A DNA stretch of 64,000 nt, from the NCBI GenBank assembly GCA_038209155.1, contig JBBQYA010000002.1, positions 3,862 through 67,861 of the forward strand, written 5' to 3'. This document shows, one piece after another, positions 37,737 through 55,700 of the stretch (its first letter is position 1; the number at the start of each line of letters is the position of its first letter). Made by a program: the position numbers and the translations under genes. Source of the stretch: Sphingobacteriales bacterium. GTDB taxonomy: Bacteria > Bacteroidota > Bacteroidia > Sphingobacteriales > Sphingobacteriaceae. The notes beneath the pieces were generated by a model. It was not told the DNA's origin. It was given only the letters and a program-made list of their open reading frames with translations, and ran no database searches.

Positions 37737-39362
37737 TTAAAATGAAAAAGTAACTCCACCTAAACCATTAAATCCATTGCTTTCGTAATTTCTCCATAAT
37801 TTATATTGGGTAGAAGTTATATTGTTTAAATTAACAAATGCCGATAGTGTTTTAGAATAACGATATTCAACTCCTAAATTTAAATCTGCATATCCTTTAA
37901 GTTTTACAAAAGAATTGACTTTATAATCTAATAAAGCATTTCTTTCTCCTACATAAAACAAGGAAGTTCGGATGATAAATTTATCTACAAAATTATAGCT
38001 CGCACTTATTTCAGCTCTTGAACCTGGTCTATGCCAAGCTCTTACCTGCTTTTGTAAAGAATAAGAATCTAAAGTTAAGCTTCCATACAATCTTAATTTT
38101 TCTGATTGTTGATAATTAATTTCTGCGTGCAAACTAGTAATTCCAATATTTCCAGAGTCATATACAACTAAAAATTTTCTATTATCGGTAGAATCATTTA
38201 CATAGAAAGGAAGATTTTTTACACTTTTTATTCCAGCCCAAACTTTAAATGAAGTGCTGCTAGCTAAACTTCCTTTTATTCCACCATAGAAATGAAGGTT
38301 TTCTGTAGTATTGTTTAGTGTAATGTTTGGAGCTATAAAAGGATTTTCGTTGCTGAAGTTTCTTAGAGAATTCTTGTAAATATCTCCAGTTATTCCTGCA
38401 AAAGCAACTGCTTTTTCTTCAATTATGTTTACTGAAGCATATCCAGAAGGGAAGAAACTAGTTTTTTTGGTATTTCCGGATTCACTCGCTAAAATAAATC
38501 CAGCTTTTATAGAAAATATATCTTGTTTGAAATTAATGGAAGGTGAAAATTTGAAAATTGTATTTTTTGTAGTGACTATATCTTTCGAATTCGTTGCGTC
38601 TAAACTTAGGTCCAATTCTGCCTTGAATTCATTTATAACTTTATTTAAATGCAAACCAGCAATTACGTTTCCTTCCTTTGCTTTATATTTATCAGAAAAT
38701 GTATAGCCGCTAATTTTCGCAGCATACCCCAAAGTATAATCGTCTATTTTTGTATTATACAATTCAGCTTCGCCACCTATAGTCTGGAAACGTTGTTTTA
38801 AATTGTTTTTAAAATTATCTGAGGTAAATAATTTTTCATCATAACCATAAAACTTTGTTGCATTTCTATCATAAAATACATTTCCACTTAATTGCTGTTC
38901 GCCCAAAAGTGTTTTACCAAATAATTTAAGGTTATCAGTACTGAAATCTCTACTGTTTTTGCCATTTGAAGAAAGATGTTTCAATAACACACCATACTGA
39001 TTGCTTTTATCTCTGGTATTGGCAACATACAATTCGCCTAAAGCAGTTCCAATATTTCCAAATCCACCTTTTAAATATCCTTTATACAATTTTGTGATAC
39101 TTTCTGATTTCATTTTTTCGGGTGGTAAACCTGCTAATGAAATTGTTTGATCAATTTTTTTATCACTTAATTTATAATTGACAACCGGATCTGCTAATTT
39201 AATATCAAACACTTCTGGATTGGTTCTAATCCTAACACCTTCCGCTAAAATTGCTTTATAAGGTCTTATCACATCTATATCTTCTGATAGATTTTTTTGT
39301 GCATTTGCCATTGTTGCTATTAAAACAAAACTTAACAACAAATTATATCTTTTAAATTTCAT
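37737..39362 (-). CDS. Outer-membrane beta-barrel protein, receptor-barrel-like without a plug
   Basis: Signal peptide MKFKRYNLLLSFVLIATMANAQ and a beta-strand pattern throughout, ending ...GGVTFSF (aromatic terminus). I use the ATG at 39362, which leaves a 7-nt gap after the TPR gene. Confidence 0.65.
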   Translation of the reverse strand: MKFKRYNLLLSFVLIATMANAQKNLSEDIDVIRPYKAILAEGVRIRTNPEVFDIKLADPVVNYKLSDKKIDQTISLAGLPPEKMKSESITKLYKGYLKGGFGNIGTALGELYVANTRDKSNQYGVLLKHLSSNGKNSRDFSTDNLKLFGKTLLGEQQLSGNVFYDRNATKFYGYDEKLFTSDNFKNNLKQRFQTIGGEAELYNTKIDDYTLGYAAKISGYTFSDKYKAKEGNVIAGLHLNKVINEFKAELDLSLDATNSKDIVTTKNTIFKFSPSINFKQDIFSIKAGFILASESGNTKKTSFFPSGYASVNIIEEKAVAFAGITGDIYKNSLRNFSNENPFIAPNITLNNTTENLHFYGGIKGSLASSTSFKVWAGIKSVKNLPFYVNDSTDNRKFLVVYDSGNIGITSLHAEINYQQSEKLRLYGSLTLDSYSLQKQVRAWHRPGSRAEISASYNFVDKFIIRTSLFYVGERNALLDYKVNSFVKLKGYADLNLGVEYRYSKTLSAFVNLNNITSTQYKLWRNYESNGFNGLGGVTFSF

Positions 39363-39369
39363 AGGATTC

Positions 39370-42300
39370 TTAATTTTCAGCACTAGTTAATTCGTCTAGT
39401 TTTCTCTTTGCTGTAGGTTTTATTTCATCATCGCCTTCGTAGTTATCTAGCAAACTTTGCAAAGTACTTTTTGCTTGAAAAGTGTCATTCAATCTTGTAT
39501 AAGTATCAGCAAGTAATAGGAAAGATTTTCCAATCCAATAATCATAAGAAGGAATTTCGTTTATAATCTCGAAACTTTTTTTCTTAGCATCATCATATTT
39601 TCCGTTGTTAAATAAATCCTGAGCGATGTAATATCTAGCTTCTGCTCCAGCAATTGTAGTGGTGGTTGCGGCTAAAGTTTTGAAATAATTTAATGCAGAA
39701 ATGGTATCTTTTTTCAACAATAAAGCTCTCCCAGCATATAAATTAGCGGTGTTTTTTTCGTCTGTTGATGATTTGTCAAATTCTATTACAGTTTTTGCAG
39801 CCAGAAAAAGACTATCAGCATTCTGTTCTTTTGAATAGCAATTCAATAGATTATTAATAGCAAAACCGTACGTTTCTTTCAGTTGTGGATTGTTTTTTAA
39901 TTGAATTAAATAAGGTTTTGCAGCTGAACAATTATTTTGTTGAACTAAAATTCTAGCGATATAAACAAGAGATTTTTCATTGAATAAAGAATTTCCTGTT
40001 CCTAAAACATATTTAAAATCGGATAATGCATTGTTGTAATCCTTAGTTTGTAAATAACTTTCGCCTCTATAATAATAAGCTTCTGTAGCAAAATATCCTT
40101 TTGGATAATTTCTTAAATATGAACTAAAGGAGGTGATGCTACCTGCAAAATCACTTTTTAAGTAGTTGGAATTTGCCGCTTGAAAACTTATTGAATCTTT
40201 CTGTGGAGCAGAAATACTCGAATTAGGAATTCCTGCAGAATAATTCAAAAAGCCGTCAGCATCACCCTTTCCAATATATATATTCCGAATGGCTTGCATA
40301 GCTTCTTTAGATTCTGGACTTCCACTATATCCCGAAACTACTTTTTTGTATTCCTGCAATGCTTTTTCATCTTCATCCAAATTATAAGAGATTAAACCTA
40401 GATTTAAATAAGCTCTTGGAACCAAATTACTTTTAGGATAATAAGTGATAAATTGATTAAAAGCAATTTTTGCATTGCTAGGATCATTGATGTATAAATA
40501 AGTTGCACCAATTTCAAATTTTGCATCATCAGCATAAATTGAACTTGGGTATTTGGAAATAATATTTTGTAAGGCATTCAATTTCACATTACTTTGATTT
40601 TGCAAACCATTAATGATGGCTCTTTGGAAGAGTGCATAATCTGTTCCTGATTGGTTGGTGTTTATTATTTTATTGTATTGATTGATTGCTTTATCGTAGT
40701 TTTTCAATGCAAATGCACAATCTCCTGATCTTAAAATTGCATCATTTAAAATCTTTTTATCAGCATCTGGATTTGCTAAATATTTATCGAACCAAGTGGA
40801 AGCTGAATTATAATTTTCTTGAATGAAATAGGCATAACCTATATTATATGATGCTTTTTTATAAATAGTAGTTTCTTCTGCTTGAGCAGACAAAATGAAT
40901 TGTTGATAACCCGAAATAGCTAGTTTTACATTTCCCGATTCAAAATTACTTTCTGCTTTCCAATACATGGCAAGAGATTGAATTAATTTATCTGTTCCGT
41001 TTTTTATTGCTTTTTCAAATAAGTTAATAGCAGATCTGTAATCTTTTAAATTAAATAATTCAACCCCTCTGAAATAATTTGCTTGTTGGTAAGCTTGCAA
41101 GGCAGATTTTGATTTAGGATTTACAGTTTCTAATAAATCAATTGCTTCTTGATAATTTTTTGAACCTGCCAATGCTTCACCCAAATACGCTTTTGCTTCA
41201 TTTACGTTATCATCATTCGGATATTTTTTGATATAATCTCTAAATGTTGCGACCGCTACATCATTAAATTTCAAATCATAAGATAGTTTTCCATAATTCA
41301 ATAAACCCTCTCGGCTTAGTTTTTCGTCAGCATTTTGCTTGGCAACTTTCTGAAATGCTGTTCTGGCACTTTGTTTATTATTTAGTTTTAAAAATGAATT
41401 ACCTAAAATATACATCCCGTTTTGAGCAAATATTCCGGTTGAATCTCCTAATCTTTCTAAGCTTTTAATAGCATTCGCATAATCTGCTGTCTGAAAATTT
41501 GAATATCCTATTTGATATAAATCTTGAGCATTTAATAATCTGATGCTATCACTCTTCAGAAATCCATTATAATATTCTCTTGCTTTTTTATAATCAGATT
41601 TTTTAAAATAAGCACTCCCAACCAATCTATACATTGCAGATTCGTTTTTCGGATTTGAATTCTTTAAAATAGGCAATGAATAATTGATTAATTCATCGTA
41701 TTTGCCAGTTTGATAATATATCTGAGCTATATAATAAGGAACTAAACTGCCGTAAATTTTAGAATCTTTTAAACTCAAAAACGTTTCAAGTGCTTGAGGA
41801 TAATCCTTTTCTACATAAGATGTGTACGCATAATAATAGGATGCAGGATATCCATATTTTGTAGAACTGCCTCGCACGTCTCTAAAAAAACCTTTTGCTT
41901 TTTTATAATCCTTTTGCATAAAATAGCTATACCCGATCTTGAATTTGTATTCTAATCTTTCGGCATCAGTTAAGGCATACATATCTGCTTTTTCAAACCA
42001 TTCTGTAGCATCTTTAAAATTATTTTGACGATAATAAAATTTACCTAAACGAAAAAATGCAGATTTAGCCAAAGCGTTTTCTGGATATTTATTCACAAAA
42101 TCTAGCATCAGAAATTCCGCTTGATCATTGAATAATTCCATGGCACACAATGCTTGATAAAATGTAGAGTTAATTCGTAACAAATTAATATTATCGCGAT
42201 CTGCTGGTGTGAAACTAATGGTTTGCAAGCTCTTGTCAACTTGCTCAAATTCTATTTGAGCTACTGCAAACTTCTCTTTATCAAATAATTCAATGGCGTT

Positions 42301-42405
42301 TTTAAATTGCTTATTGATGGTGTAAATAGCGGTTTGTTGTGCAAAAGTATTAATCATACATCCAGAAATGATGATTAATAAAATAGCGGCTTTTTTTATA
42401 TTCAT
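39370..42405 (-). CDS. Large TPR-repeat lipoprotein
   Basis: MNIKKAAILLIIISGC gives a lipobox. About 1000 aa follow of repeated A..Y..G..Y....Y..A...F TPR/YbgF-like units. I use the ATG at 42405 rather than the track start at 42435. Confidence 0.75.
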   Translation of the reverse strand: MNIKKAAILLIIISGCMINTFAQQTAIYTINKQFKNAIELFDKEKFAVAQIEFEQVDKSLQTISFTPADRDNINLLRINSTFYQALCAMELFNDQAEFLMLDFVNKYPENALAKSAFFRLGKFYYRQNNFKDATEWFEKADMYALTDAERLEYKFKIGYSYFMQKDYKKAKGFFRDVRGSSTKYGYPASYYYAYTSYVEKDYPQALETFLSLKDSKIYGSLVPYYIAQIYYQTGKYDELINYSLPILKNSNPKNESAMYRLVGSAYFKKSDYKKAREYYNGFLKSDSIRLLNAQDLYQIGYSNFQTADYANAIKSLERLGDSTGIFAQNGMYILGNSFLKLNNKQSARTAFQKVAKQNADEKLSREGLLNYGKLSYDLKFNDVAVATFRDYIKKYPNDDNVNEAKAYLGEALAGSKNYQEAIDLLETVNPKSKSALQAYQQANYFRGVELFNLKDYRSAINLFEKAIKNGTDKLIQSLAMYWKAESNFESGNVKLAISGYQQFILSAQAEETTIYKKASYNIGYAYFIQENYNSASTWFDKYLANPDADKKILNDAILRSGDCAFALKNYDKAINQYNKIINTNQSGTDYALFQRAIINGLQNQSNVKLNALQNIISKYPSSIYADDAKFEIGATYLYINDPSNAKIAFNQFITYYPKSNLVPRAYLNLGLISYNLDEDEKALQEYKKVVSGYSGSPESKEAMQAIRNIYIGKGDADGFLNYSAGIPNSSISAPQKDSISFQAANSNYLKSDFAGSITSFSSYLRNYPKGYFATEAYYYRGESYLQTKDYNNALSDFKYVLGTGNSLFNEKSLVYIARILVQQNNCSAAKPYLIQLKNNPQLKETYGFAINNLLNCYSKEQNADSLFLAAKTVIEFDKSSTDEKNTANLYAGRALLLKKDTISALNYFKTLAATTTTIAGAEARYYIAQDLFNNGKYDDAKKKSFEIINEIPSYDYWIGKSFLLLADTYTRLNDTFQAKSTLQSLLDNYEGDDEIKPTAKRKLDELTSAEN

Positions 42406-42869
42406 AGTTTCCCGATACAGCGGAATCCAAATCAAAAATTAATTCCGGGATTGCTGCATTAACGCTCCAAACTTAGGTAAATATTGTACCAAGCTTTTAA
42501 ATTTATCTTAACAGATGTAGATAATTTAGTTTGGGACTGAAAAATTTGATTTTGCTCTAATGTATGAAGAATTGAGACTATGATAACATAAGATTGAAAT
42601 AAAGTATACAAGGTTATCTGAGTTTGCAGCATTGGTAATCCCTTAAGGATTTACGTTGAAAGTAGTTTAAAATAGTTTTATTGATATCAAATAACTCAAA
42701 ATAAATGATTTAATAAATTTAATTTATATGTTTATGAGATAGTTGAATGATAAACAACTTATTTCTCTATTATTCTTCATTAATAATTATCTATATTTAT
42801 AACGTGTTCTAAAAGAGTTAAAAAACAAAAAGTATTTTAAGAAATCTAACCTTTTCAAAAGTATATCCT

Positions 42870-43763
42870 ATGAAATCCACATTACTTTTAATCCTTTCCT
42901 TTATCTTTTCAAATACTCATGCACAGTTTGCTCCACTTGGTGCAAAATGGCATTATTCATCCAGTGATAATGGATCTGCTCCTTCTGGTGCTACCTACAA
43001 ATTGTTTGAAAGTGAAAAAGATACTGTGCTAGCTGGTGTAAATTGTAAAAAGTTAAAAATAACCCATTTCAAATATAATGGAGATACAATTTTTCCTGTT
43101 CCTTTTTTTGTTTACCAGTCAAACGACACTGTCTTTTATTTTAATGATGTCTATTCTCGCTTTTTTCCTTTGTACATATTTAATGTAAATGTTGGCGATA
43201 CATTGGTTTATCATACACCATATATTCCTACAAATCCAGCTGATACCAATTTATATGTTAGGGTTGATTCTGTTACTAAATTTATTTCTGGCTCAGATAC
43301 GTTAAAACATATTTGGACATCGTCAATTTTGAATACTGTTCTATTTTTTGATGGAGGCTATATTGAATTATTGGGATGCCCAAATGTAATGTTTCATCAA
43401 GCCGGATTTACCTTTCCAGAAGCGGACGGACCAATGAGATGTTATGAAGATAGTTCGATTTTTATAAAAAAGAGTTCTACTAATTGTGATTACCGCCTAA
43501 CTTCTGGAATTAGTGCAGAGAAAGAAAATAGTTCAATATCCGTTTACCTAAATCCAAATAACCAAATAGTTCAGTTAAAAACATCTGAAAACGCTTCGAT
43601 TCATTATAATTTATTTGATGCTAATGGAAAACGTATAATCCAAGGAAACTTTAATTTCGAAACTGCAATTGATTTAAGTAGAAATACAGATGGAATATAT
43701 TATTTACAATTAAGCAAAGAGAATAAAATATTCAGAACTGAAAAATTGAGTTTAATACATTAA
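42870..43763 (+). CDS. Secreted protein with a T9SS C-terminal sorting domain
   Basis: Signal peptide (FIFSNTHAQ). The C-terminus ISVYLNPNNQIVQLKTSEN...DANGKRI...GIYYLQLSKENKIFRTEKLSLIH is a typical Por_Secre_tail. Confidence 0.75.
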   Translation: MKSTLLLILSFIFSNTHAQFAPLGAKWHYSSSDNGSAPSGATYKLFESEKDTVLAGVNCKKLKITHFKYNGDTIFPVPFFVYQSNDTVFYFNDVYSRFFPLYIFNVNVGDTLVYHTPYIPTNPADTNLYVRVDSVTKFISGSDTLKHIWTSSILNTVLFFDGGYIELLGCPNVMFHQAGFTFPEADGPMRCYEDSSIFIKKSSTNCDYRLTSGISAEKENSSISVYLNPNNQIVQLKTSENASIHYNLFDANGKRIIQGNFNFETAIDLSRNTDGIYYLQLSKENKIFRTEKLSLIH

Positions 43764-43784: not shown

Positions 43785-46088
43785 TTAAAACGTCAAACTT
43801 GCTCCAATACTTGGTAGAAAAGGTAATTGGTTTTGACGCTCGTATCGTATTGCATCAAAATAAAATATATTTTCACGGTTTAGAATATTGGTAATTCCAG
43901 CAGAAAGTTCAAGTTTAGAGTATTTAGATAATTGGAAACTTTTTTTACCAGAAACATCCATTCGGATAAAATTAGGAAGTAATGCTTTATTTAATTCTGC
44001 GCTAATTACACCAATATTACCATTTTCATTTATGTAATTGGTGTTGATATTATTTCCGAAATTAATTTGTTCATACACACCTTGTGTTTGTGTAAATGGA
44101 AATCCTGATCCAAAACTGTATCTCACACTTACTTCCCAGTCCTTCTTTTCACCGAAATCATAAGTACTTAAAAAATTAATATTATGTCGTCTATCATAAA
44201 ATGGTCGATAAGTTCTTATTTCATCCCTACGAATTACTTGACCTAAAGAATAAACAAGATTGATGTATAAATTCTTTTTTCTGTAGGTTCCAGAAAAATC
44301 AATTCCTCTCGCATAACCTTGTTCTACAATGATATCTTTTCTTAAAAAGTTAGGAACAGTATCGTTTGGACCATTATCTGGATATATTTTATCTCTATTG
44401 GTATTGGTTATTTGGCTAAAATTTTTGTAATAACCTTCAATATTGATTAATAAATTGGGTAATAAATCATATTCAAATCCAGCTATTAGATGTTCTGCTT
44501 TCTGAAGTTTAGAAGTCACTTGTTGGCCAAGAAATTCTTTTTGCAAATTTTCTGTTCCGGATAAAAAACCATAGAATAAATTCACTACATCTCTATCAGA
44601 ATTTGCACTTAATAAGTTTTGAGAATAAAATCCTCCAGCAGATTTCAACCTTAATTTTTCAGTCAAAATAAATTTTGCGCCTAATCTTGGTTCAGGTGAA
44701 AATTCACTTAACGAAGCATAATAATGTGCTCGAAAACTGGGTTCAACAATTAATCTTCCTTTCTTGTATTTATAACTTATAAAACCTGCTAATTCTGTTG
44801 TAAAATCTTGCTGTTGAACAGTCAAATTAAAAGGATTGGTAAATTTAAAGTCGGTATTAAAACCCAAAACTTCAAAACCATAACGGATATCATCATCACC
44901 TAGAAAAAGGGTATAATCCATTCCTGCATTAAACCCAGAAATGGAACTAAATCTTGGTTTTCCATCACGCTCTTCCAGCGTTATTCTATAATCGGTATAC
45001 GAAAAGAATGCATTAATTAAAGAAGAAGAAGCTTCTGGAACCAAAACAAAATTCATACCTCCACCTCTTGATTTCCAATTGATTCTGGTGGCATCCGTAT
45101 AATTTACTCGATCGGTAAAGTTGAATCCAAACAGATTTACTTTACTTCCATTGTTTCCGCTAGTGGAGATTTTAGCATAAATATCGGTAAAGTTAAATGG
45201 CAAACCAGCGGTATCTACATAGCTATAAATGGTTTTAGAGGTTTGCTCTAAATAAGAGGTTTTTCCTGTTAATAAAAATGTAGTAGAAGGTTTGCCTTCT
45301 TTGTATTTGCTCAATGGTCCTTCTAATAATATTTTTGAACTAAAAGGACTTGCACCAACTTTTCCCGATAAACGGTTTTTGTTTCCATCACGAGTTGTGA
45401 TATCTAGAATAGCTGAAATTCTGCCGCCATATTTTGCTCCAAAACCTCCAGTGTATACATCCACATTTTTGATGATGTCAGTTTCAAAAACAGAAAACAA
45501 ACCTATTGAATGAAAAGGATTATAAATCGTCATTCCATCAAGAATTACTTTGTTTTGAATCGGAGATCCACCACGAATATATAGTTGACCACCTTGATCT
45601 CCAGAGAAAATTACACCTGGTATCACTTGAAGATATTGCGCCAAATCGGGTTCACTACCAATAGATGGAATTTGCATAATTTGTTTTGGAGTAATTTTGG
45701 TTACTGAAATTTGAACTTTATTCAATTGCTCTGCTCTTTCTCCAGAAATGCTCACTTCTTTTAAATTTACTTTTGTAGGTAGTAAATATATATTTTTAGA
45801 TACCCGTTCATTTGCTTTCAAAACAATTGTAAATTCGGCAGTATCAAAACCCATATTTCTAGAAACTAATCTGTAAGTCCCTGGCTTCAGTTGAGAAATA
45901 GAATAAAAGCCATTTACATCGGTAGTAGATCCAATGCTGGTTCCTTTAAGACTTACTCCACTAAAAATGATGGGTTCACCGGTTTCTTTGTCATAAACAA
46001 AACCTCTTATTTCTGAATTTTGTGCTAAAGTGCTGAACGGTAATAGAAAAAGTAAAAGAAACTGAAGGGATTTAAAAAAATTATTCAT
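43785..46088 (-). CDS. TonB-dependent receptor (CarboxypepD_reg, plug, barrel)
   Basis: IRGFVYDKETGEPIIFSGVSL...GFYSISQLKPGTYRLVSRNMGF. The plug is ...LAQYLQVIPGV...GGQLYIRGG. The barrel ends ...GASLTF. Confidence 0.9.
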   Translation of the reverse strand: MNNFFKSLQFLLLFLLPFSTLAQNSEIRGFVYDKETGEPIIFSGVSLKGTSIGSTTDVNGFYSISQLKPGTYRLVSRNMGFDTAEFTIVLKANERVSKNIYLLPTKVNLKEVSISGERAEQLNKVQISVTKITPKQIMQIPSIGSEPDLAQYLQVIPGVIFSGDQGGQLYIRGGSPIQNKVILDGMTIYNPFHSIGLFSVFETDIIKNVDVYTGGFGAKYGGRISAILDITTRDGNKNRLSGKVGASPFSSKILLEGPLSKYKEGKPSTTFLLTGKTSYLEQTSKTIYSYVDTAGLPFNFTDIYAKISTSGNNGSKVNLFGFNFTDRVNYTDATRINWKSRGGGMNFVLVPEASSSLINAFFSYTDYRITLEERDGKPRFSSISGFNAGMDYTLFLGDDDIRYGFEVLGFNTDFKFTNPFNLTVQQQDFTTELAGFISYKYKKGRLIVEPSFRAHYYASLSEFSPEPRLGAKFILTEKLRLKSAGGFYSQNLLSANSDRDVVNLFYGFLSGTENLQKEFLGQQVTSKLQKAEHLIAGFEYDLLPNLLINIEGYYKNFSQITNTNRDKIYPDNGPNDTVPNFLRKDIIVEQGYARGIDFSGTYRKKNLYINLVYSLGQVIRRDEIRTYRPFYDRRHNINFLSTYDFGEKKDWEVSVRYSFGSGFPFTQTQGVYEQINFGNNINTNYINENGNIGVISAELNKALLPNFIRMDVSGKKSFQLSKYSKLELSAGITNILNRENIFYFDAIRYERQNQLPFLPSIGASLTF

Positions 46089-46147: not shown

Positions 46148-47077
46148 TTATTGATTTTTTTGACCGCTTAATAGATAAAGAACTGCCATTCTGATAGCTA
46201 CTCCATTTTCTACTTGATCTAAAATGGCTGCTTGCGGAGAATCCGCTACTTCGGAGCTAATTTCTACACCTCTATTAATTGGGCCTGGGTGCAAAACCGT
46301 AATTTTTTTATCCAATTTATGCAGAATTTCAGCGGTCAATCCGTATTGCATTGTGTATTCTCTAATGCTTGGAAAATACTTTATATCCTGTCTTTCCAAT
46401 TGAATTCTGAGCATGTTTGCCACGTCACACCATTCTAAAGCTTTGATTAAATTCGTTTCTATTTTTACACCAAGAGACTCAATATGGCGTGGAAGCAAAG
46501 TGGCTGGTCCACAAACTTTGACTTCTGCTCCCAACTTTTTTAGACATAAAATATTAGAAAGTGCAACTCTGCTATGTAAAATATCACCAACAATAACTAC
46601 TTTTTTACCAGCCAAATCACCAATTTTTTCTCGGATAGAAAATGCATCTAATAATGCTTGAGTTGGGTGCTCATGCGCACCATCGCCAGCATTTATGATT
46701 TGAGCATTGATGTGTTTCGATAAAAAAACTGCCGCCCCAGCATGTGGATGCCTCATTACTACCATGTCAACTTTCATGGCAAGAATATTATTTACGGTAT
46801 CAATCAAAGTTTCACCTTTAGAAACGGAAGACGAAGAAGCTGCAAAATTAATTACATCTGCTGAAAGTCTTTTTTGAGCAAGTTCAAAGGAAAGTTTTGT
46901 TCGAGTTGAATTTTCGAAAAACAAATTTGCAATGGTAACATCTCTTAACGATGGAACTTTTTTAATAGGACGATTTAAAACACTTTTAAAATTTTCTGCT
47001 GTATCAAATATAATTTGAATATCCTCTTCGTTGATTTCTTTAATTCCTAAAAGATGTCGTACACTTAGTTTATTCAT
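46148..47077 (-). CDS. pyrB: Aspartate carbamoyltransferase catalytic subunit
   Basis: FFENSTRTKLSFELA (STRT motif), HPTQALLD and HPGPINRG. Confidence 0.93.
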   Translation of the reverse strand: MNKLSVRHLLGIKEINEEDIQIIFDTAENFKSVLNRPIKKVPSLRDVTIANLFFENSTRTKLSFELAQKRLSADVINFAASSSSVSKGETLIDTVNNILAMKVDMVVMRHPHAGAAVFLSKHINAQIINAGDGAHEHPTQALLDAFSIREKIGDLAGKKVVIVGDILHSRVALSNILCLKKLGAEVKVCGPATLLPRHIESLGVKIETNLIKALEWCDVANMLRIQLERQDIKYFPSIREYTMQYGLTAEILHKLDKKITVLHPGPINRGVEISSEVADSPQAAILDQVENGVAIRMAVLYLLSGQKNQ

Positions 47078-47097
47078 GATTAATTATGCTCAAATTT

Positions 47098-47637
47098 TTA
47101 ATCGCCACTCAAAAGTAAAACTTCATCTGCACCATCTATTTCTTTCCACTTTACTTTCACCCGTTCTGAGTCTACCGAATCTATCTTGATTCCAGTGTAA
47201 TCTGGTGCTATTGGAAGTTCTCTTGTATATTTCCGATCGATCAATACCATTAATTCTACTTTGGAAGGTCTTCCAAAAACTAATAATGCATCCAAACCTG
47301 CTCTTACTGAGCGACCTGTGAACAATACATCATCTATTAAAATGACTTTTTTATTTTCTATAATAAAATCCATATTAGTGCTTGCTGCTAATAAGGGTTC
47401 TCGTCTTCGGAAATCGTCTCTGAAAAATGTAGTATCCAAATCTCCGTAAGGAATAATAATATCTGGTAAAATGATTTTTAAATGCTGTTGTATTCTTCTT
47501 GCTAATAAAATTCCCCGGGGTTGCAAACCAATGATTACAGAATTGGAAAAATCGTCATGATTTTCGATGAGCTGATGACACAATCTTTTTAATGTTATGT
47601 CGAAATGCGTATGGCTTAAAATTAACCTACTTTGCAT
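47098..47637 (-). CDS. pyrR: Bifunctional pyrimidine regulator / uracil phosphoribosyltransferase PyrR
   Basis: PRPP-binding loop VILIDDVLFTGRSVRA, 179 aa, immediately upstream of pyrB. Confidence 0.88.
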   Translation of the reverse strand: MQSRLILSHTHFDITLKRLCHQLIENHDDFSNSVIIGLQPRGILLARRIQQHLKIILPDIIIPYGDLDTTFFRDDFRRREPLLAASTNMDFIIENKKVILIDDVLFTGRSVRAGLDALLVFGRPSKVELMVLIDRKYTRELPIAPDYTGIKIDSVDSERVKVKWKEIDGADEVLLLSGD

Positions 47638-48010: not shown

Positions 48011-49210
48011 TTACTGAAAATCTGTTGTTAATTTAAATCTAGTAATTCGGCTGTTTTTGGAATCGCACACATATAATATTTTGTCATTGTAGGCCATAGA
48101 TTTCGGTTCGTTAAATTGAGTTGGACCATTTCCTCTTCCTCCAAAAGAAACTTTTATATTTTTTCTATTTGCACTAGAAGCAGGTGCATCTACTCCTTCC
48201 AAACCGTTGAGCGTAAATAAATAAATAGAATCTTTTGCTGCGTCAGAAACAAAAATATAATTGGTTCCGTCGCCAGCTATGGTAATTGCCTGTGGAGTTG
48301 TAAATCTATTGGGAGAATAGATAAAACCATCAGCTTTGCTTGGGTCGTTGTTATTCAAAGATTGATTTAAACTATAGCTTGAGCCATTTTCATCAGATAA
48401 AAACCGAATATATTGTGTTTTGATTGCAGTATTCACGTCTATAGATGTGAAAAGAAAATCTCCGCCAGGTTTCACTGAATTAGATTGCGGTGCTTTTGCT
48501 AAAGTTGAAATGGCAAATGGTTTTTTGAAATAATCACTTATTAATCCTTGCTCGGTGCTTACGTTTACAGAAGAAATAAATTTATCTTTAATACTAAAAA
48601 CCAAAACTGCATCATCAGGACCACCAATTTGGTTTGGATTATTTGATGGGCCAGATCTTGTAACATAATAAGAATTGTCTGCCATTATACTTAATCTATT
48701 TAAATGTACGGCTGTGTCTGCAGTTGTAAAACTAGTTTTAAAATAAAATGGATGTAAAATAGTTTTAATTATTTTTGCAGATCGTAATCCATAAAAAATA
48801 CCTTGCAAACTAATTCTATATATTGCATCCACCGTAAATTTTTGTGAATTAATAATGGTGTCTTTTGTTCCTAAAGCAAGCAATTCTAATGATCTGTTTT
48901 GAGCAATTGATTTTACGCCTTTAACAAAAAATTCCCCCTGAATTACCCCAGACTTATTATAAGCAATGATTTTCTCCGATTTTTGGTCAGCTACATAAAT
49001 TAATTCATCGTATCCAGCTATAATATCTACAGGGTTTTGTAAACCTTGAAACGATGGCTGAATAGGTACAAATGCAATTAATTCATTGTTAAAAACTGGA
49101 ATTTCTATAAAATCAATTTCTGTTTTATCGCCAAAAGGTTTTTCGCAAGAAATAAATAAAAAACTTATTATAATAAATAAGTAAGTAGAAATATTGTTAA
49201 TCCAATTCAT
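48011..49210 (-). CDS. NHL-repeat beta-propeller lipoprotein
   Basis: Lipobox FLFISCEKPF. NHL-like repeats include ...DELIYVADQKSEKIIAYNKSG, ...TNYIFVSDAAKDSIYLFTLNG and FNEPKSMAYNDKILYVCDSKNSRITRFKL. Confidence 0.7.
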   Translation of the reverse strand: MNWINNISTYLFIIISFLFISCEKPFGDKTEIDFIEIPVFNNELIAFVPIQPSFQGLQNPVDIIAGYDELIYVADQKSEKIIAYNKSGVIQGEFFVKGVKSIAQNRSLELLALGTKDTIINSQKFTVDAIYRISLQGIFYGLRSAKIIKTILHPFYFKTSFTTADTAVHLNRLSIMADNSYYVTRSGPSNNPNQIGGPDDAVLVFSIKDKFISSVNVSTEQGLISDYFKKPFAISTLAKAPQSNSVKPGGDFLFTSIDVNTAIKTQYIRFLSDENGSSYSLNQSLNNNDPSKADGFIYSPNRFTTPQAITIAGDGTNYIFVSDAAKDSIYLFTLNGLEGVDAPASSANRKNIKVSFGGRGNGPTQFNEPKSMAYNDKILYVCDSKNSRITRFKLTTDFQ

Positions 49211-49218
49211 ATTTTTTA

Positions 49219-50235
49219 TTATTTATCTTCTCTTTTACTTTTATTAATTCCAAATTGAATTCCAATCTGATTGGTAAATCCTAAAAATTGGTATGGTTCT
49301 GCTGCATATTCAATTCGTAATGGATTTTTACCAACTCTAGTTTTTAGGCTAAAGCCAAAAGTTGGGTAAGGCTGGTTTTCAATTCCAATTTTGTAACCCG
49401 CTCTTAAAGCTAACAGAGCCATGTATTCATATTCTACACCTATTCTTATATTTTCTGCATTATCATTTGGATGATGCAATTCTGCTGCAACTAATAAAAC
49501 ATGATTTTCTTTTCTTAAAGGAACAAACGAAACACCGATTTTAAAAATGGTGGGAGGGCTAAAATTTTCAGTTGTTCTATCTGGATTTGGAATGGAAGAG
49601 AAACTTTTTGTTTGTCCATTTATTTTAGAATCTACCCCAAAATTATTAAGCAAAACAGCAAATTTCAATTCTTTAAAATCTGTTTTATACAAAAATCCTA
49701 AATCTAAAACTCCAGAGTGAACATTGTATGTATCTAAATATTCATTTACATATCGTGCAGTAACGCCATAACTAAAATAGTCGGAAAGTTTTCTAGCAAA
49801 ACTTACCCCAGCAGCCATATTGGAACTATAATAAAATTCTCCTGTACCCTCTGGACTAAATTCTGTTCTCCTAGGCATGGCATCTGTTCTCAAAGATTGA
49901 ACATGAACGGCAAAAGTATTATTGTTTTTTGCTGGAATTACTGCCGCTAAATAGCTGTTGTTTATATTACTTATATAAATTGTATTAGAGAGTCCAAAGG
50001 TTAAATTTTCAACATCTATGATGGAAGCTGGGTTTGCATTAGCAGAAAAACCGTCTCCAGAAACTGCTGTTTGAGCACCACCCATTGCTGATTGTCTTGG
50101 ACTTGTTGATAATTTCAAGAAAGTAAAAGAAGATGTACCAGCGCGTTGACCTCCAAGATTTGGAATTAATTGGGCTAAAGCAGTATTACTAAAAATACTT
50201 AATATGAACAAAAAGGGTATAGTTTTAAATTTCAT
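49219..50235 (-). CDS. PorV/PorQ-family outer-membrane barrel
   Basis: Signal peptide, then the family N-terminal signature ...NLGGQRAGTSSFTFLKLSTSPRQSAMGGAQTAVSGDGFSANANPASI. At 338 aa it is nearer PorQ size than PorV size. Confidence 0.7.
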   Translation of the reverse strand: MKFKTIPFLFILSIFSNTALAQLIPNLGGQRAGTSSFTFLKLSTSPRQSAMGGAQTAVSGDGFSANANPASIIDVENLTFGLSNTIYISNINNSYLAAVIPAKNNNTFAVHVQSLRTDAMPRRTEFSPEGTGEFYYSSNMAAGVSFARKLSDYFSYGVTARYVNEYLDTYNVHSGVLDLGFLYKTDFKELKFAVLLNNFGVDSKINGQTKSFSSIPNPDRTTENFSPPTIFKIGVSFVPLRKENHVLLVAAELHHPNDNAENIRIGVEYEYMALLALRAGYKIGIENQPYPTFGFSLKTRVGKNPLRIEYAAEPYQFLGFTNQIGIQFGINKSKREDK

Positions 50236-50252
50236 TTTATGTCTTTTATCAA

Positions 50253-53072
50253 TTAAAATTGCCAGCTTAAACCTACCAATAGTTGTCTTGGGTTTAAAAA
50301 CCTTGCAGGATTAAAAGGCGGAATTCCATTATCCTGCGGATCTGGGTAATTTGGATCTCTAAAATTACTTTCTAAATTATCTCCTCTTTCATAGGCCCTG
50401 CCAGTAACAGAATTTATAATTGCAGAATTTTTATTGTTAAATGCATTTTTTATTTCAAGGCTTAATCCAATGGTACTTAATCTACTGATATAAAAGTCTT
50501 TTGTAATTTTCAAATCGGTAAAATACCAAGCAGCCCCGAGTTTACTAAACGGATTTTCTTCATCAATTTCGTAAATAGGTCTTCCAACTTCATTGATTCC
50601 TTTAAACAATGCAGGTGTATATCGCAACCCAGATTTATAGGTAGATGTTAAAAACACTCGATAGTTTTTAAAAGGTATATTAAATATTTTAAACGAAGTA
50701 TCAGGTTTTAAAATTACCTGAAACTTTATATCCAAAGGTCTATCACCAGCCAAGAATTGTTCTTTGGTTGGAGAAATATTGCCCGTTTGTTTTATTTGTA
50801 GTTGAGACTCAAGAGCAGAGTTGGATTTTCCTGTTGCAATTTGATAAGCTCCTGTTAATGAAGCATTCAACCACCTTTTTACTCTTCTATTAAAGCTTAT
50901 TTCTAATCCTCTCACTCGCGCATAATCTTGATTGATAAAAAAGTTTTTCTCTGTAAACCTACCTGTTTGATCTTTTATAATTAAAGTTCTACTTACTATG
51001 TAATCATATTTATCATTATAAAAAGCAGCAGCAGAAATAGCAAAATTCGAAGTGATTTGAGTTTTCAAACCAACTTCGTAAGACACGGTAACCTCTGGAT
51101 TTAAATCTGGGTTTCCTAAATTAGATAAGAAAGAACGGTTTTGATAAACTGGATCTAAGCCTGCATAAACAAATCTTGGATGCGGCAAACGGGTAAGGTG
51201 CCCATAATTAAAAAATAATACATTGTTTTCTGAGATTGGAAAAGAAATTCTAAGTTTCGGTAAAAGTCTAAATTTGAAATTTCTTCCCAAAAGTGGGGTT
51301 GTATTATTTCTGTAACTATTTCTAGTGGCATCTAATACTGGAGCATTCGGATCTTCGACTGCATCATCTGCAAACTTACCGGGTGCCCAATAATTTAATC
51401 TCAAACCAATATTTACAATTATGCCCTTGTACCTTAGATCATTTTGTGCAAAAATACCTCCAGTAGCTGGATTCACTTTCCAAATATCATTGCTTTGGCC
51501 AATACTTGTAGAAGGTGTGCTCGCTGAATCATTTATTTGCAGAGGAGCTCCAATCCAAGGTCGAGAAACATCTATCCATTGATATTCTTGTTCTTTATGC
51601 TCAAATCCTGCGGTGAAAAAGTTGGCTTTATTTAATTGATAATTTATTTTAAATTTTAGTGTATTTTCAATTGCATAGTGATCATGCCAAAGAGTTGCAA
51701 TTCCATTATTATTGAATAATCCAGGGCCTTGGTTTACAAATACAACAGAATCACCTGGGTTAAACAAAGTAATATCACCAGAAACAATAGATGCTGGGTC
51801 AAATACTTGATCAACCGTTTGACCTCTAAATAACCTTCCGTTTGCATCTGCTCGCAGATTTACAAACAGCCTTGCTAATGAAACATCAATAGAAACTCGA
51901 TTAGAAAGTAAATTTTGATATTGTAAAATTGTTAAATTAGATTTTTGTGTGTAGGTATTTCCATTATCTAAATCTAAACTAAATGGATACTGAAATCCAG
52001 GCGTAACAATAGCATTATTTCCAATGATTTGTAGAGATCTTGTATTTTGATTGATGTTTAAACTATATTGATTGGAAGCAGTAAGTTTCTGACCTTTTTT
52101 TAAATTATAGGTAAGTTTAATGGTGTTTGACCAACGATTATCTTGACGAGGAGCCCAAAATTCTCCTCCATTTTTTAGTAAAGAACTTTTTAGTTGATCA
52201 GCAGTAATCTTAAAAAACTCATCGGTGAGTTCCATATTTCCACTTACGAAAAAACCAATTTTCTTTTTAGAAAAAGGTAATTTCCCACCTACACTTAAAT
52301 TTATTGCATCTGAATTCCATTGAGAAGCTTCGTTAAAACCCAAATTATCTCTAGTATACGCTCCGCTAAATTGAATTTGATCTCCCCCTTCTCTAATTCT
52401 AGTAAGTACTAAACCAGATGTTCCTTCTCCGTATTCCGCACCTACACCTCCAGTTATTACTTCTACATCTTTAATTGCATTCGACGCAACTTCTACTCCA
52501 AATCCGGTTCCAGCTAATGGATCTTGTGCATTAACACCATCCACCAAAAATTGAGTTTCATAAACTCTTCCGCCTCTAATTTGCAGTCCATCAGGGTTTT
52601 GACTCACACCTGCTTGCATGGCAACGATAGATTGAACATCTTTCACGTTCATATCTTTTATGTCTTCCGAAGTTACTTTGGAAGTAGATCTTCCAGCTTC
52701 TAAATCAATTATTGTTTTTTGTCCTAAAATCTCTACGGCTCCTAAATCTGTAGTTGCCTCACTTAATGATAAATTGAGAATTAATTCTTTTGATGAGCTT
52801 ATTTTTGCTCCATTATAAATTACTTCTTTATATCCTAAATACGTGATTTTGATACTGTATTCTCCAGGTTTTATGTTTATTAATTTATAATTTCCATTTA
52901 TATCTGTTTGAGTTCCAGAGTAAGTACCTAAAACCAAAACGGTAGCACCAGGGATTGTTTCTTTTGTTTTTTTATCCGTAATTACTCCCTTTATAGATCC
53001 AGTTTGAGCCCAAGAAGCGGTAGCAAATAGTAAAAAGAAAAATAAAACAATTAATTGTAAACGTTTAATCAT
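50253..53072 (-). CDS. TonB-dependent receptor, 939 aa (CarboxypepD_reg, plug, large barrel)
   Basis: GSIKGVITDKKTKETIPGATV...GNYKLINIKPGEYSIKITYLGY. The plug is ...VQSIVAMQAGV...LQIRGGR. The barrel ends ...VGLSWQF. Confidence 0.9.
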   Translation of the reverse strand: MIKRLQLIVLFFFLLFATASWAQTGSIKGVITDKKTKETIPGATVLVLGTYSGTQTDINGNYKLINIKPGEYSIKITYLGYKEVIYNGAKISSSKELILNLSLSEATTDLGAVEILGQKTIIDLEAGRSTSKVTSEDIKDMNVKDVQSIVAMQAGVSQNPDGLQIRGGRVYETQFLVDGVNAQDPLAGTGFGVEVASNAIKDVEVITGGVGAEYGEGTSGLVLTRIREGGDQIQFSGAYTRDNLGFNEASQWNSDAINLSVGGKLPFSKKKIGFFVSGNMELTDEFFKITADQLKSSLLKNGGEFWAPRQDNRWSNTIKLTYNLKKGQKLTASNQYSLNINQNTRSLQIIGNNAIVTPGFQYPFSLDLDNGNTYTQKSNLTILQYQNLLSNRVSIDVSLARLFVNLRADANGRLFRGQTVDQVFDPASIVSGDITLFNPGDSVVFVNQGPGLFNNNGIATLWHDHYAIENTLKFKINYQLNKANFFTAGFEHKEQEYQWIDVSRPWIGAPLQINDSASTPSTSIGQSNDIWKVNPATGGIFAQNDLRYKGIIVNIGLRLNYWAPGKFADDAVEDPNAPVLDATRNSYRNNTTPLLGRNFKFRLLPKLRISFPISENNVLFFNYGHLTRLPHPRFVYAGLDPVYQNRSFLSNLGNPDLNPEVTVSYEVGLKTQITSNFAISAAAFYNDKYDYIVSRTLIIKDQTGRFTEKNFFINQDYARVRGLEISFNRRVKRWLNASLTGAYQIATGKSNSALESQLQIKQTGNISPTKEQFLAGDRPLDIKFQVILKPDTSFKIFNIPFKNYRVFLTSTYKSGLRYTPALFKGINEVGRPIYEIDEENPFSKLGAAWYFTDLKITKDFYISRLSTIGLSLEIKNAFNNKNSAIINSVTGRAYERGDNLESNFRDPNYPDPQDNGIPPFNPARFLNPRQLLVGLSWQF

Positions 53073-53095
53073 AAGTTTTTTTTAAATAATAGTAT

Positions 53096-54556
53096 TTACC
53101 AATTGAATTCTTGTTTTAACACTGTTCTGAAAAACTCTTTTAATTCATTGGTTGAAGAATTTCCATCCGCATCTCCGAGCAGATTATTCAATTCGACTGA
53201 GCAAAAAATTTGATTAGTTTTTCCATCCGCATTTTCAGATTTGGCACAAATAGCTTTAGGTGCAAAAAATCCATTTGTTTTTAATTGTGCTTTATAAATA
53301 ATTTTAGCACTTGATTTTGCATAAAATGGGTCTAAGCCATTGATGAATTTAGTAACTTTTAAATTGGGAAAATTAGGGGCGTCTGCTTGTTTTACTGCCA
53401 AACTATCAATTGGAAAATCGATTCTTTGCCCCGTTAAAACGGTAGCGAAACTGTCTACAGGGCTAAATTGATAAATAGCAGAAGTTCTTACTACGGAAGC
53501 AGGAAAAGAAGATGAGATTAAAACCTTACCACCTTTGTTTAAATAATCTTGAATAGCTGCAGAGGCAAGTTCCAATGGAAGCGAATTATTTATGGCAGTA
53601 CTTTCACCATACCAAAAAACTTTATCATATAAATTTAATAATAAACTAAAAGTAGGTTTCCAAAAAGAAGGAAAATTTGCAAATCCACTTGGAAACAAAT
53701 CATACAAATCGTAATTTCCATTTATTTCATTAATTAATGGAAGATAAATAGCAGTGGGATTTGGTGTTACGTTTATATTGTGAGCGTCAACAACTAGCAA
53801 ATCTGAAGACTTCTTTTTTAAATAAAAAGATTTTAATGTGTCGGGCAAACTTTCACTACCTGCATTATCTCTTACTTTGATGTAAACAAAATTTCTATCA
53901 TTTACTTTTAGCCCGCTTATTTTTTCTGATCGTAATAGAGCATCAAAACCAAAATAAACATTTCCGTTTTGCAGACCTACATTTTCTGGATTTTCTGGAA
54001 CAAGTGTCAAAAAGGTAAGTGTTCTAGGTAATGGATACCATCTGCCTTCATTTATTTTTACAAATACAGAATCTATAGTTTCTAAACCATCAAAATCATC
54101 TGCTTTCCATAAAATAGAAAAAACTGAAAACACAGTATCTGTTTTAATAAGAGCATCATCAAAACTGATTTCGGGTTTCTTATTTTTTATAGGAATGCTC
54201 AGAAAAGCAGGTCCTGGATCTTTATTTCCATCATTATCTACTGCACGTACATAAAAATCAATGTCGCTTGTATCACTATTTCCAGAAATACTAAACCTAA
54301 ATACTGAATCCTGTTTGGTTGTAAATTCCCAATTTATCTTATTAAAAGAAAATTCAAAACCTTTTACAAAACCATCCTTATCGTCACCACTCCATCTTAA
54401 ATTTACTACTGTATTTAGTCTTTCTTCACCAGATCTATTAATTTTATCAACAAATAATTTGGTACTCGGAGTTTGGTTTTCTAATAGTTCTCCTTTTTTG
54501 CAGGAGATAAAAAACAAGCCAAAAAAGGCAAAAATATAAAGATGAGCTATTTTCAT
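53096..54556 (-). CDS. Lipoprotein with two N-terminal Ig/FN3-like modules and a C-terminal alpha/beta domain; function unknown
   Basis: Lipobox LFFISCKKG. The repeated motif W.(G/A)DD.DG appears as LRWSGDDKDGFVKGFEFSF and ILWKADDFDGLETIDSVFVKI. It is the first gene of the four-gene operon. Confidence 0.6.
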   Translation of the reverse strand: MKIAHLYIFAFFGLFFISCKKGELLENQTPSTKLFVDKINRSGEERLNTVVNLRWSGDDKDGFVKGFEFSFNKINWEFTTKQDSVFRFSISGNSDTSDIDFYVRAVDNDGNKDPGPAFLSIPIKNKKPEISFDDALIKTDTVFSVFSILWKADDFDGLETIDSVFVKINEGRWYPLPRTLTFLTLVPENPENVGLQNGNVYFGFDALLRSEKISGLKVNDRNFVYIKVRDNAGSESLPDTLKSFYLKKKSSDLLVVDAHNINVTPNPTAIYLPLINEINGNYDLYDLFPSGFANFPSFWKPTFSLLLNLYDKVFWYGESTAINNSLPLELASAAIQDYLNKGGKVLISSSFPASVVRTSAIYQFSPVDSFATVLTGQRIDFPIDSLAVKQADAPNFPNLKVTKFINGLDPFYAKSSAKIIYKAQLKTNGFFAPKAICAKSENADGKTNQIFCSVELNNLLGDADGNSSTNELKEFFRTVLKQEFNW

Positions 54557-54700
54557 AAAGAGCGCTAAATTACATAAAATTCCATCTTACTTTCTTTAGT
54601 CCTATGTTAAGATAATGTTAAGTTTTTGTTGTCTTTGGATTATTCAAAATTTTATTCTTTATTTTAAAAAAAAATTAAAACATCCTAAAAATTTAAAAAC

Positions 54701-55156
54701 ATGAACATGAAATTAAAACTCACATTTACCATTCTATCCATCTTATTTTTCAGTATTTCAAATGCTCAAGAATACAAAGTAATTACTTCCATAGAATCTG
54801 TAGTTCCGTTAGGTTTAGGTAGATCCAGAATTTTGGAAAATAAAACTTCTCTGGATATTGCTGCATTTACAACCGAAAGAACTGATGGAAAAAAAAGCGA
54901 CCAAGGAGATATAAGTAGGGGAGATGCAAAAATTGATAATTTTTCAGAAGCCAAATTGCTGAATTTTTTCTCAGCAGTAGGAATTAATTTTCAAAATATT
55001 GCTTCTAATGATGCTCTGATTTCTTCAAAAATTAATGCCTTGGTCAAAGAAGGTTGGAAATTACAATTTGTAACAAGTGGAGTAGAAAGCGATGCTGGAA
55101 AAGATGATGGAAGTGGGATTTTTATCACCAGATATATTTTTTATAAAGAAAGATAA
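54701..55156 (+). CDS. Small secreted protein of unknown function
   Basis: Signal peptide MNMKLKLTFTILSILFFSISNAQE, 151 aa, followed by a clean terminator. No motif recognised. Confidence 0.5.
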   Translation: MNMKLKLTFTILSILFFSISNAQEYKVITSIESVVPLGLGRSRILENKTSLDIAAFTTERTDGKKSDQGDISRGDAKIDNFSEAKLLNFFSAVGINFQNIASNDALISSKINALVKEGWKLQFVTSGVESDAGKDDGSGIFITRYIFYKER

Positions 55157-55182
55157 ATTCGGATTTTAAAGATTAAAAATAA

Positions 55183-55212
55183 AAAACCCGAAATTAATGT
55201 TTCGGGTTTTTT
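55183..55212 (+). terminator. Rho-independent terminator with a bidirectional A/T-flanked hairpin
   Basis: AACCCGAAA-TTAATG-TTTCGGGTT followed by a T-run. Confidence 0.75.
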
Positions 55213-55700
55213 ATGTTTTGAAAAAGTATTCTGATAAAAGTATATAAACATGAACATAAGTTGATTTAAAGAACTTAATATTGCTTTTTTTATGTTTGAA
55301 AAGCAACTAACAATAATATAATTCCTAATTGAAATCCACAGTTAATTAAAACTTATTTTAATCAACAGCTAATTGTCAGATCACGTAAATTTAAACCTTA
55401 GTAATATTAAGAACCCCAATTTAAATAAAAACCTTATTACCTTATTTCAAATTATTAATAAGGTTGTTTTACTAAAGAATCATCTTAATTACTAATATAA
55501 TAAAGTAAACTTTTTAATTAAATATTAAAAAACAACATACTAATTTAGATATTAAATAAATTAATAAATTTCTATCAAAAGCTACTAAAGTTTATTTTTT
55601 CTTTATAAATAAAAAAGTAAGCAATTTCTTAAAATGAAAATATTAATTATTTAGTTTGCTCAATTAAATAAAAAGATTTAAAAACAATCACCTACAAATC

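Follow-up and report, generated by a model that had tools for sequence, protein, structure and literature searches.

Within a 64,000-nucleotide (nt) stretch of DNA from a Sphingobacteriales bacterium (GenBank assembly GCA_038209155.1, contig JBBQYA010000002.1), hereafter the window, we analysed four genes, g1 to g4, encoding a TonB-dependent transporter, an outer-membrane barrel of the PorV/PorQ family and two lipoproteins (Table 1). The four open reading frames (ORFs) all lie on the minus strand and are separated by gaps of 23, 17 and 8 nt. This four-gene operon is real and constitutes the conserved core of a seven-gene cluster of Bacteroidota, in which g1 to g4 are joined by three genes, A, B and C, for type IX secretion system (T9SS) cargo-type proteins. 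The GC content of the window is about 31%, and its nearest relatives are uncultured metagenome-assembled genomes (MAGs) of Bacteroidota. An earlier sequence-only reading of the same DNA had described the operon, and its gene order, strand and gaps were reproduced with exact ORF coordinates; the two lipoboxes (FFISC and LFISC) and two type I signal peptides that it had named are readable in the translations, as are all the motifs it had quoted (LRWSGDDKDGFVKGFEFSF, ILWKADDFDGLETID and NLGGQRAGTSSFTFLKL). Its family and domain assignments of all four products were likewise correct, as judged by profile searches and, for g1 and g4, by AlphaFold2 models built on homologue alignments.

Table 1. Features of the g1 to g4 locus, with positions counted from the first nucleotide of the window.
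Feature	Position	Strand	Basis
g1, fibronectin type III (FN3) lipoprotein, 486 aa	53096..54556	-	ORF; no Pfam/NCBIfam family; AlphaFold2
g2, TonB-dependent transporter, 939 aa	50253..53072	-	ORF; Pfam, NCBIfam
g3, PorV/PorQ-family (FadL-like) outer-membrane barrel, 338 aa	49219..50235	-	ORF; Pfam, NCBIfam
g4, six-bladed NHL beta-propeller lipoprotein, 399 aa	48011..49210	-	ORF; Pfam, AlphaFold2
Divergent intergenic region 5' of g1, 144 nt	54557..54700	-	sequence

The predicted promoter of the operon presumably lies within the divergent intergenic region 5' of g1. Promoter and terminator scans yielded only weak sigma-70-like matches 5' of g1, with no excess over shuffled sequence, and an Rfam search of the intergenic region before g1 identified no riboswitch or other Rfam family.

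Products of the four genes

The g3 barrel matches NF033709, the PorV/PorQ family model, along positions 1-325 of its 326 with 168.8 bits (cut-off 90), and the Pfam PorV model PF19572 with 32.5 bits (cut-off 27). Against the equivalog models its scores fall below the respective cut-offs: 99.9 bits versus 220 for PorQ (NF033711, with positions 10-192 of 335, the N-terminal half, aligned), 61.8 versus 250 for PorV (NF033710) and 34 versus 325 for PorV2 (NF052325). The same ranking, family model above PorQ, PorV and PorV2 in that order, was obtained for 20 out of 20 g3 orthologues, the best E-value against the PorQ model being 5e-31. The sole PDB sequence match is PorV (6h3i_F, E 2e-4, residues 30-168). 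No match of g3 to PorP/SprF (TIGR03519) was found at E<=0.01, and two of the 20 orthologues matched that model weakly (best E 5.5e-5); the BamG model matches g3 weakly (E 0.0048) and two of the 20 orthologues also marginally. Since the family model is passed and the PorQ, PorV and PorV2 cut-offs are all failed, the profile scores place g3 in a separate PorV/PorQ subfamily, closest to PorQ. The PorQ-like size claimed by the sequence-only reading is borne out by the 338 residues of g3, and PorQ is also its best equivalog match; the profile search it had proposed for sorting the barrel among PorV, PorQ and PorP/SprF upheld the PorV/PorQ family as a whole and spoke against membership in PorQ, PorV or PorP/SprF proper. 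In NCBI's annotation orthologues bear the name "PorV/PorQ family protein" and not PorQ; other homologues of the barrel are called "hypothetical protein". When a hidden Markov model (HMM) of g3 orthologues was run against all ORFs in 2.7 Mb of the loci surveyed, only the orthologues themselves were recovered, in a sample too small for porQ to be expected by chance.

The product of g4 carries the lipobox LFISC, with Cys22 as the lipidated residue, and an NHL repeat (PF01436, 22.6 bits, cut-off 20). It was modelled as a six-bladed propeller (predicted local distance difference test, pLDDT, 86.6; predicted template-modelling score 0.82), which identifies it as an NHL propeller, and the top nine Foldseek matches are all NHL domains (E 4e-13 to 1e-10), with TRIM71/Lin41, Thin and Brat among the best. 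In the orthologue alignment, a tail of about 30 residues after the lipid Cys is highly conserved (consensus C-E-x-F-F-G-x-K-T-D-x-x-F-I-D), and its residues 21-45 are modelled with low confidence (pLDDT 50-57). All named g4 homologues are called "hypothetical protein". Residues 9-89 of g4 weakly match the family of the Leptospira lipoprotein LIC_12708 (NF047780, 391 positions; E 3e-4, 19.8 bits, cut-off 150), and another spirochaete, Brachyspira, also has an annotated PorV/PorQ-family protein; the barrel-lipoprotein pair may thus have kin beyond Bacteroidota.

The g2 product is a TonB-dependent transporter by its Plug domain (45.5 bits, Pfam cut-off 23.9), by residues 530-766, which match the barrel region of NCBIfam TonB receptor models, and by the TonB-box-like segment LGAVEILGQ that precedes the plug. 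It also contains a CarbopepD_reg_2 domain (Pfam, 66.4 bits) and ends in Phe, and PF00593 is present in the g2 orthologue of one further locus (L004). The transporter falls outside SusC/RagA, as TIGR04056 gives 63.9 bits versus a cut-off of 368 and aligns with the N-terminal part only. The absence of a SusD-like partner, claimed before, was confirmed in so far as Pfam and NCBIfam detect none in g1 or g4.

The g1 lipoprotein, with the lipobox FFISC and lipid Cys19 in its translation, was modelled (pLDDT 85) as two FN3/immunoglobulin-like modules with a Rossmann-like alpha/beta domain at the C-terminus. No family in Pfam or NCBIfam matches it, scans of its homologues member by member gave marginal fn3 matches only, and a profile search of the PDB returned no match. 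With the whole model as query, Foldseek found FN3 tandems as its sole matches and left the alpha/beta domain without one. Every one of 151 g1 homologues is named "hypothetical". A T9SS C-terminal domain (CTD; PF18962, TIGR04183) was found in neither g1 nor g4, and by the Por_Secre_tail criterion neither lipoprotein is T9SS cargo.

A conserved cluster and its cargo genes

Conservation of the locus was assessed in two surveys, one anchored on g1 (one genome per species, 80 loci, neighbours scored by tblastn) and one anchored on g4 (80 metagenome loci from records without organism labels). Counts refer to informative loci only, i.e. those with enough flanking sequence, and individual loci carry labels such as L004. 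In the g1-anchored survey, the complete set g2-g3-g4 comes after g1, with order and strand unchanged, in 46 of 61 loci; 12 of the 61 have none of these genes after g1 and 3 have only some of them. The median gaps between neighbouring tblastn matches, from g1 to g4, are 21, 39 and 23.5 nt. Orthologues of the four genes across the surveyed genomes share 30-50% protein identity, and g2 is the best conserved among them, with a median identity of 51.5%. That 46 of 61 genomes keep all four genes in one order and on one strand at such identities means that the arrangement is far beyond chance. With g4 as the anchor, 71 of 73 loci have g3 directly upstream, and g2 and g1 are present in 42 of 62 and 38 of 56 loci, respectively. 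The neighbour counts of both surveys thus mark g3-g4 as the tightest unit and the four-gene set as the majority arrangement, and with them falls the possibility, raised by the sequence-only reading as a ground for refuting the operon, that the neighbours vary freely among relatives.

By label, the carriers comprise Flavobacteriales (Cryomorphaceae, Schleiferiaceae, Salibacteraceae, Owenweeksia and Thermaurantimonas aggregans), Cytophagales including Flexibacter flexilis, and lineages labelled Sphingobacteriales or Chitinophagaceae. Among the carriers of the genome survey, 78 of 80 are labelled Bacteroidota or unclassified bacteria; uncultured MAGs make up nearly all of them, and the usual model species are missing from the carriers found. 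The full Bacteroidota-type cluster also occurs on contigs in MAGs labelled Rhizobium sp. and Desulfobacterales (L008 and L072), which are probably mis-binned or mislabelled.

In most genomes, A, B and C lie directly 5' of g1 on the same strand. Gene C (about 726 aa) stands directly upstream of g1 in 61 of 65 loci of the g1-anchored survey, B (about 702 aa) is present upstream in 58 of 61 and A (about 430 aa) in 33 of 58. The protein encoded by A combines an Exo_endo_phos domain with a T9SS CTD (Pfam/NCBIfam), and its alignment contains the invariant polar residues N30, E71, H172, D210, N212, D275, D338 and H339, which we read, in an alignment of A members made without a reference enzyme, as the putative catalytic set of the endonuclease/exonuclease/phosphatase (EEP) enzymes. 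A type A CTD is present in 18 of 18 C members. In 17 of these 18, C matches the first 240 or so of the 546 positions of the ExeM/NucH model (best E 4e-21), a match that covers only the part preceding the catalytic domain. Of two C members scanned against Pfam, one gave a tRNA_anti-like match of the oligonucleotide/oligosaccharide-binding (OB) fold and the other a DUF5689 match of 16.9 bits, below the cut-off of 28.6. B is the best conserved of the three (60% mean column identity) and as a whole has no family match; in 6 of 14 members its last 125 residues or so align to the end of the PorZ model (positions 664-757 of 757; E 4e-5 to 7e-3), which is suggestive of a C-terminus resembling the PorZ CTD. 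The sequence-only reading had set the NHL lipoprotein g4 beside the propeller protein PorZ; as a PorZ analogue g4 is not supported, and B, with its C-terminal match to the PorZ CTD, is the better candidate. The link to the T9SS that had been claimed from the barrel is in turn strengthened by the three T9SS-type cargo genes upstream in most genomes. In the window itself a 297-aa protein with a T9SS C-terminal sorting domain is encoded at 42870-43763 (+), and the source organism therefore has T9SS cargo.

The cluster is interrupted or split in several lineages. One MAG (L087) has a 200-aa ORF without a signal peptide (5375-5977) between g3 and g4, and its g3-g4 pair adjoins rho and serS instead of a transporter. 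The lineages of L049 and L046 have A/B/C-g1-g2 without g3-g4 after the transporter, in L049 with an ABC permease-like gene on the opposite strand after g2 (14256 onward); the break point between modules can thus fall after g2 as well as before it. In one MAG clade B, C and g1 stand together and g3-g4 elsewhere, and one such MAG (locus tags OHK0039_...) has g1 and g4 on separate contigs. In a single species (L004 16505-19029 (-), also L005, L006 and L033), two neighbouring ORFs, which lie directly downstream of g4 and run convergent to it, match Reg_prop and Y_Y_Y (441+379 aa or 249+553 aa); from these matches they look like one split propeller protein of the two-component-regulator/PorZ type.

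Several other features of the window were recorded. Downstream of g4 by 373 nt and on the same strand lie pyrR-like (179 aa) and pyrB-like (309 aa) genes (46148-47637 (-)), named from their translations; a functional link to g4 was rejected and the adjacency is probably coincidence, since it is absent from every other locus examined. On the other side, a divergent gene (54701-55156 (+)) encodes a secreted 151-aa protein without a family match and is followed by a strong terminator-like hairpin at 55179-55214; this protein stands next to g1 only in the lineage of the window (L007, L090 and L092, 82-84% identity), and a 48% homologue occurs in L082. The gene for the CTD protein at 42870-43763 is convergent to, and 21 nt from, that for a 767-aa CarboxypepD_reg and Plug transporter (43785-46088 (-)), another juxtaposition of cargo and transporter, and a third CarboxypepD_reg and Plug transporter is encoded at 28530-30935. 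Positions 37737-42435 (-) encode a 1021-aa protein made entirely of tetratricopeptide repeats and then a 548-aa protein without a family. The sole Rfam family in the window is a Flavo-1 RNA (RF01705, 13358-13465 (+)), with 52.8 bits against a gathering score of 42.

A possible capture-and-import machine

The family memberships, folds and gene linkage are established, and from them we infer a sequence of steps. In the reading that we prefer, to which we give a little less than an even chance, g1 to g4 would be the core of a machine for capture and import that is coupled to the T9SS and probably handles nucleic acids, with g3 retaining its own cargo beside g2. The products of A, B and C would be exported by the T9SS. 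The g3 barrel would be held together with g4 through the conserved N-terminal tail of the latter, a pairing suggested by their near-invariant adjacency and by the conserved, low-confidence tail; this tail recalls BamH, a surface lipoprotein that has its conserved N-terminus wedged into BamG, a FadL-like barrel (PMC12578637). Together with g4, the barrel would bind an uncleaved CTD and so hold B, and perhaps C, at the surface in the manner of PorQ and PorZ. The CTD of PorZ stays uncleaved and is bound by PorQ, and it has been proposed that cognate PorV-like barrels protect and hold particular CTD proteins (PMC10202324), with which the idea of cargo retention by g3 agrees. A polymer, most likely extracellular nucleic acid, would then be bound by C and cut by A, and g1 and g2 would take up the fragments using TonB energy.

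The weakest step of this model is the substrate. Nucleic acid is the most likely one, as C has the non-catalytic region of ExeM/NucH, with an OB-fold match in one member, and A is an EEP enzyme, and as CarboxypepD_reg transporters with DUF5689 partners and nucleases serve DNA utilisation or transformation elsewhere. DNA utilisation in Bacteroides thetaiotaomicron involves a CarboxypepD_reg transporter, the DUF5689 protein DdbD and nucleases (bioRxiv 10.1101/2025.03.18.642099; PMC12478041), and DdbD structurally resembles DNA-binding domains (PMC12478041). Transformation of Riemerella anatipestifer requires a CarboxypepD_reg transporter and a DUF5689 protein (PMC8459023), and the Ddb loci are evolutionarily related to the R. 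anatipestifer system (bioRxiv 10.1101/2025.03.18.642099; PMC12478041).

Several observations weigh against the capture-and-import model. Homologues of A, B and C are absent from the 64-kb window (tblastn; HMM search at E<=1); as only g1 to g4 are found at the locus in the window and its close relatives (L007, L090-L092), the cargo genes are either unlinked or lost in this lineage. Twelve loci keep g1 with B and C and without g2 to g4, and in 20 loci, mostly of one marine lineage, g3-g4 stand alone among housekeeping genes (tamB-like and tsaD-like), so that the parts can work apart. The similarity of B to the PorZ CTD is weak, and HHalign of B versus C aligned the last 27 columns only, with 12.8% probability. 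Neither EEP enzymes nor OB folds are specific to nucleic acids, and the mature cluster proteins are mostly acidic, their charge being uninformative on DNA binding. At least two acidic residues at positions +1 to +6 after the lipid Cys occur in 10 of 17 g1 and in 7 of 18 g4 orthologues; the export signal of both lipoproteins appears ambiguous and their surface exposure uncertain.

The solo loci beside tamB-like and tsaD-like genes, together with the PorQ-like length of g3 and PorQ as its best equivalog match, would also suit a general, lineage-specific T9SS attachment or sorting module formed by g3-g4, either as a second attachment complex or as a divergent form of PorQ accompanied by a lipoprotein; its place beside the transporter would reflect co-regulation or drift. 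We regard this as unlikely, since the PorQ score of 99.9 against 220 is confined to the N-terminal half, NCBI calls the orthologues PorV/PorQ family proteins and not PorQ, and about 70% of loci have the pair joined to g1-g2, most of these with T9SS cargo genes as well. In favour of such a module, the 2.7 Mb of loci yielded no second PorV/PorQ gene, but this sample is so small that porQ would not be expected in it by chance, and the absence weighs little. A nutrient uptake system independent of the T9SS also seems improbable to us; in it g3 would act either as a channel of the FadL type or, like BamG/BamH, as a platform that exports or holds g4, and g1 and g4 would bind substrate for g2. PorV/PorQ proteins are part of the FadL superfamily and have members annotated in bacteria that lack a T9SS, cargo genes are absent from the window, g3 and two of the 20 orthologues show the weak BamG matches given above, and BamG2-BamH2 provides a precedent for a barrel and lipoprotein pair in an operon (PMC12578637). 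Against this, 61 of 65 genomes have genes for T9SS CTD proteins directly linked to g1, all 20 orthologues match T9SS barrel models far better than BamG, and the carriers of the genome survey are labelled Bacteroidota or unclassified except for the two that look mis-binned. Service of the same machinery in DNA uptake for natural transformation instead of nutrition, for which the essential role of the R. anatipestifer proteins (PMC8459023) and their relationship to the Ddb loci would speak, is very unlikely, as the probable nuclease A favours degradation and the loci examined show no linkage of competence genes to the cluster.

The capture-and-import model has a bolder form, in which g3 and the NHL lipoprotein dock T9SS-exported DNA-binding and nuclease proteins onto a TonB-dependent transporter and would amount to a T9SS-fed "nucleic-acid utilisome", an outer-membrane machine of a new class. 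We consider this form rather doubtful; if true, the docking machine could also be the outer-membrane route of DNA in many Bacteroidota without a known DNA-uptake route. Our literature searches found no paper on the cluster, on a pair of PorV/PorQ barrel and NHL lipoprotein, or on T9SS cargo genetically tied to a TonB-dependent transporter, in line with the earlier statement that no function has been described. This may reflect the uncultured MAG carriers and the names of the products, g1 and g4 being listed as "hypothetical protein" and the barrel as no more than "PorV/PorQ family protein". The novelty would lie in the combination of cargo-specific anchoring by the T9SS with an import locus resembling Ddb loci or polysaccharide utilisation loci (PULs), as far as function can be inferred. 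The cluster bears on how T9SS cargo is held at particular sites of the cell surface and on whether PorV-like barrels besides PorV and PorQ are cargo-specific anchors. As a conserved example that lends itself to testing, it comprises a third PorV/PorQ subfamily that has a fixed lipoprotein partner and a genetic tie to likely cargo and importer. If the substrate is nucleic acid, DNA utilisation or uptake would reach beyond gut Bacteroidales and Riemerella into many environmental Flavobacteriales, Cytophagales and related lineages, with relevance to phosphorus and nitrogen cycling and to gene transfer.

Comparison with known systems

A close parallel to the barrel and its partner is the PorQ-PorZ pair of Porphyromonas gingivalis. 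As in that pair, a barrel of the PorV/PorQ family and of PorQ size is encoded together with a beta-propeller protein, and in the full cluster the C-terminus of B resembles the retained, PorQ-bound CTD of PorZ. In contrast to it, g3 scores below the PorQ cut-off, g4 is an NHL lipoprotein without a CTD, g3-g4 lie within a TonB-dependent transporter operon, and B matches PorZ at the CTD only. The arrangement of SprF and SprB, in which a PorP/SprF gene stands beside type B CTD cargo (PMC9143113), likewise has a dedicated barrel gene adjoining the gene of a secreted protein that the barrel anchors. That barrel, however, belongs to another family, the cargo of the g1 to g4 cluster has type A or PorZ-like CTDs instead of type B, and the cluster adds a transporter and two lipoproteins. 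BamG-BamH and BamG2-BamH2 also pair a 14-strand FadL-like barrel with a lipoprotein whose N-terminus is highly conserved, the latter pair in an operon, whereas g3 is only marginally similar to BamG and has no link to BamA, and BamH is not an NHL propeller.

On the side of import, the cluster shares with ddbABCDEF and with RA0C_RS04915/04920 of R. anatipestifer a CarboxypepD_reg-type transporter with an adjacent extracellular partner, as well as secreted nuclease-family enzymes and a putative DNA-binding protein (of OB-fold or DUF5689 type) in one locus; g2 is likened to DdbC (WP_008762511.1) and RA0C_RS04915 by generic domain type only. Unlike ddbABCDEF, the cluster has no DUF5689 lipoprotein beside g2, its OB-fold protein and EEP enzyme carry T9SS CTDs and not lipoprotein signals, a PorQ-like barrel and an NHL lipoprotein are added, and the window is without nuclease or DUF5689 genes. 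With the SusC/SusD PULs, finally, the cluster has in common a CarboxypepD_reg transporter that is co-encoded with surface lipoproteins and secreted hydrolases, yet it lacks SusD and glycoside hydrolases, and g2 scores 63.9 versus 368 bits for SusC/RagA.

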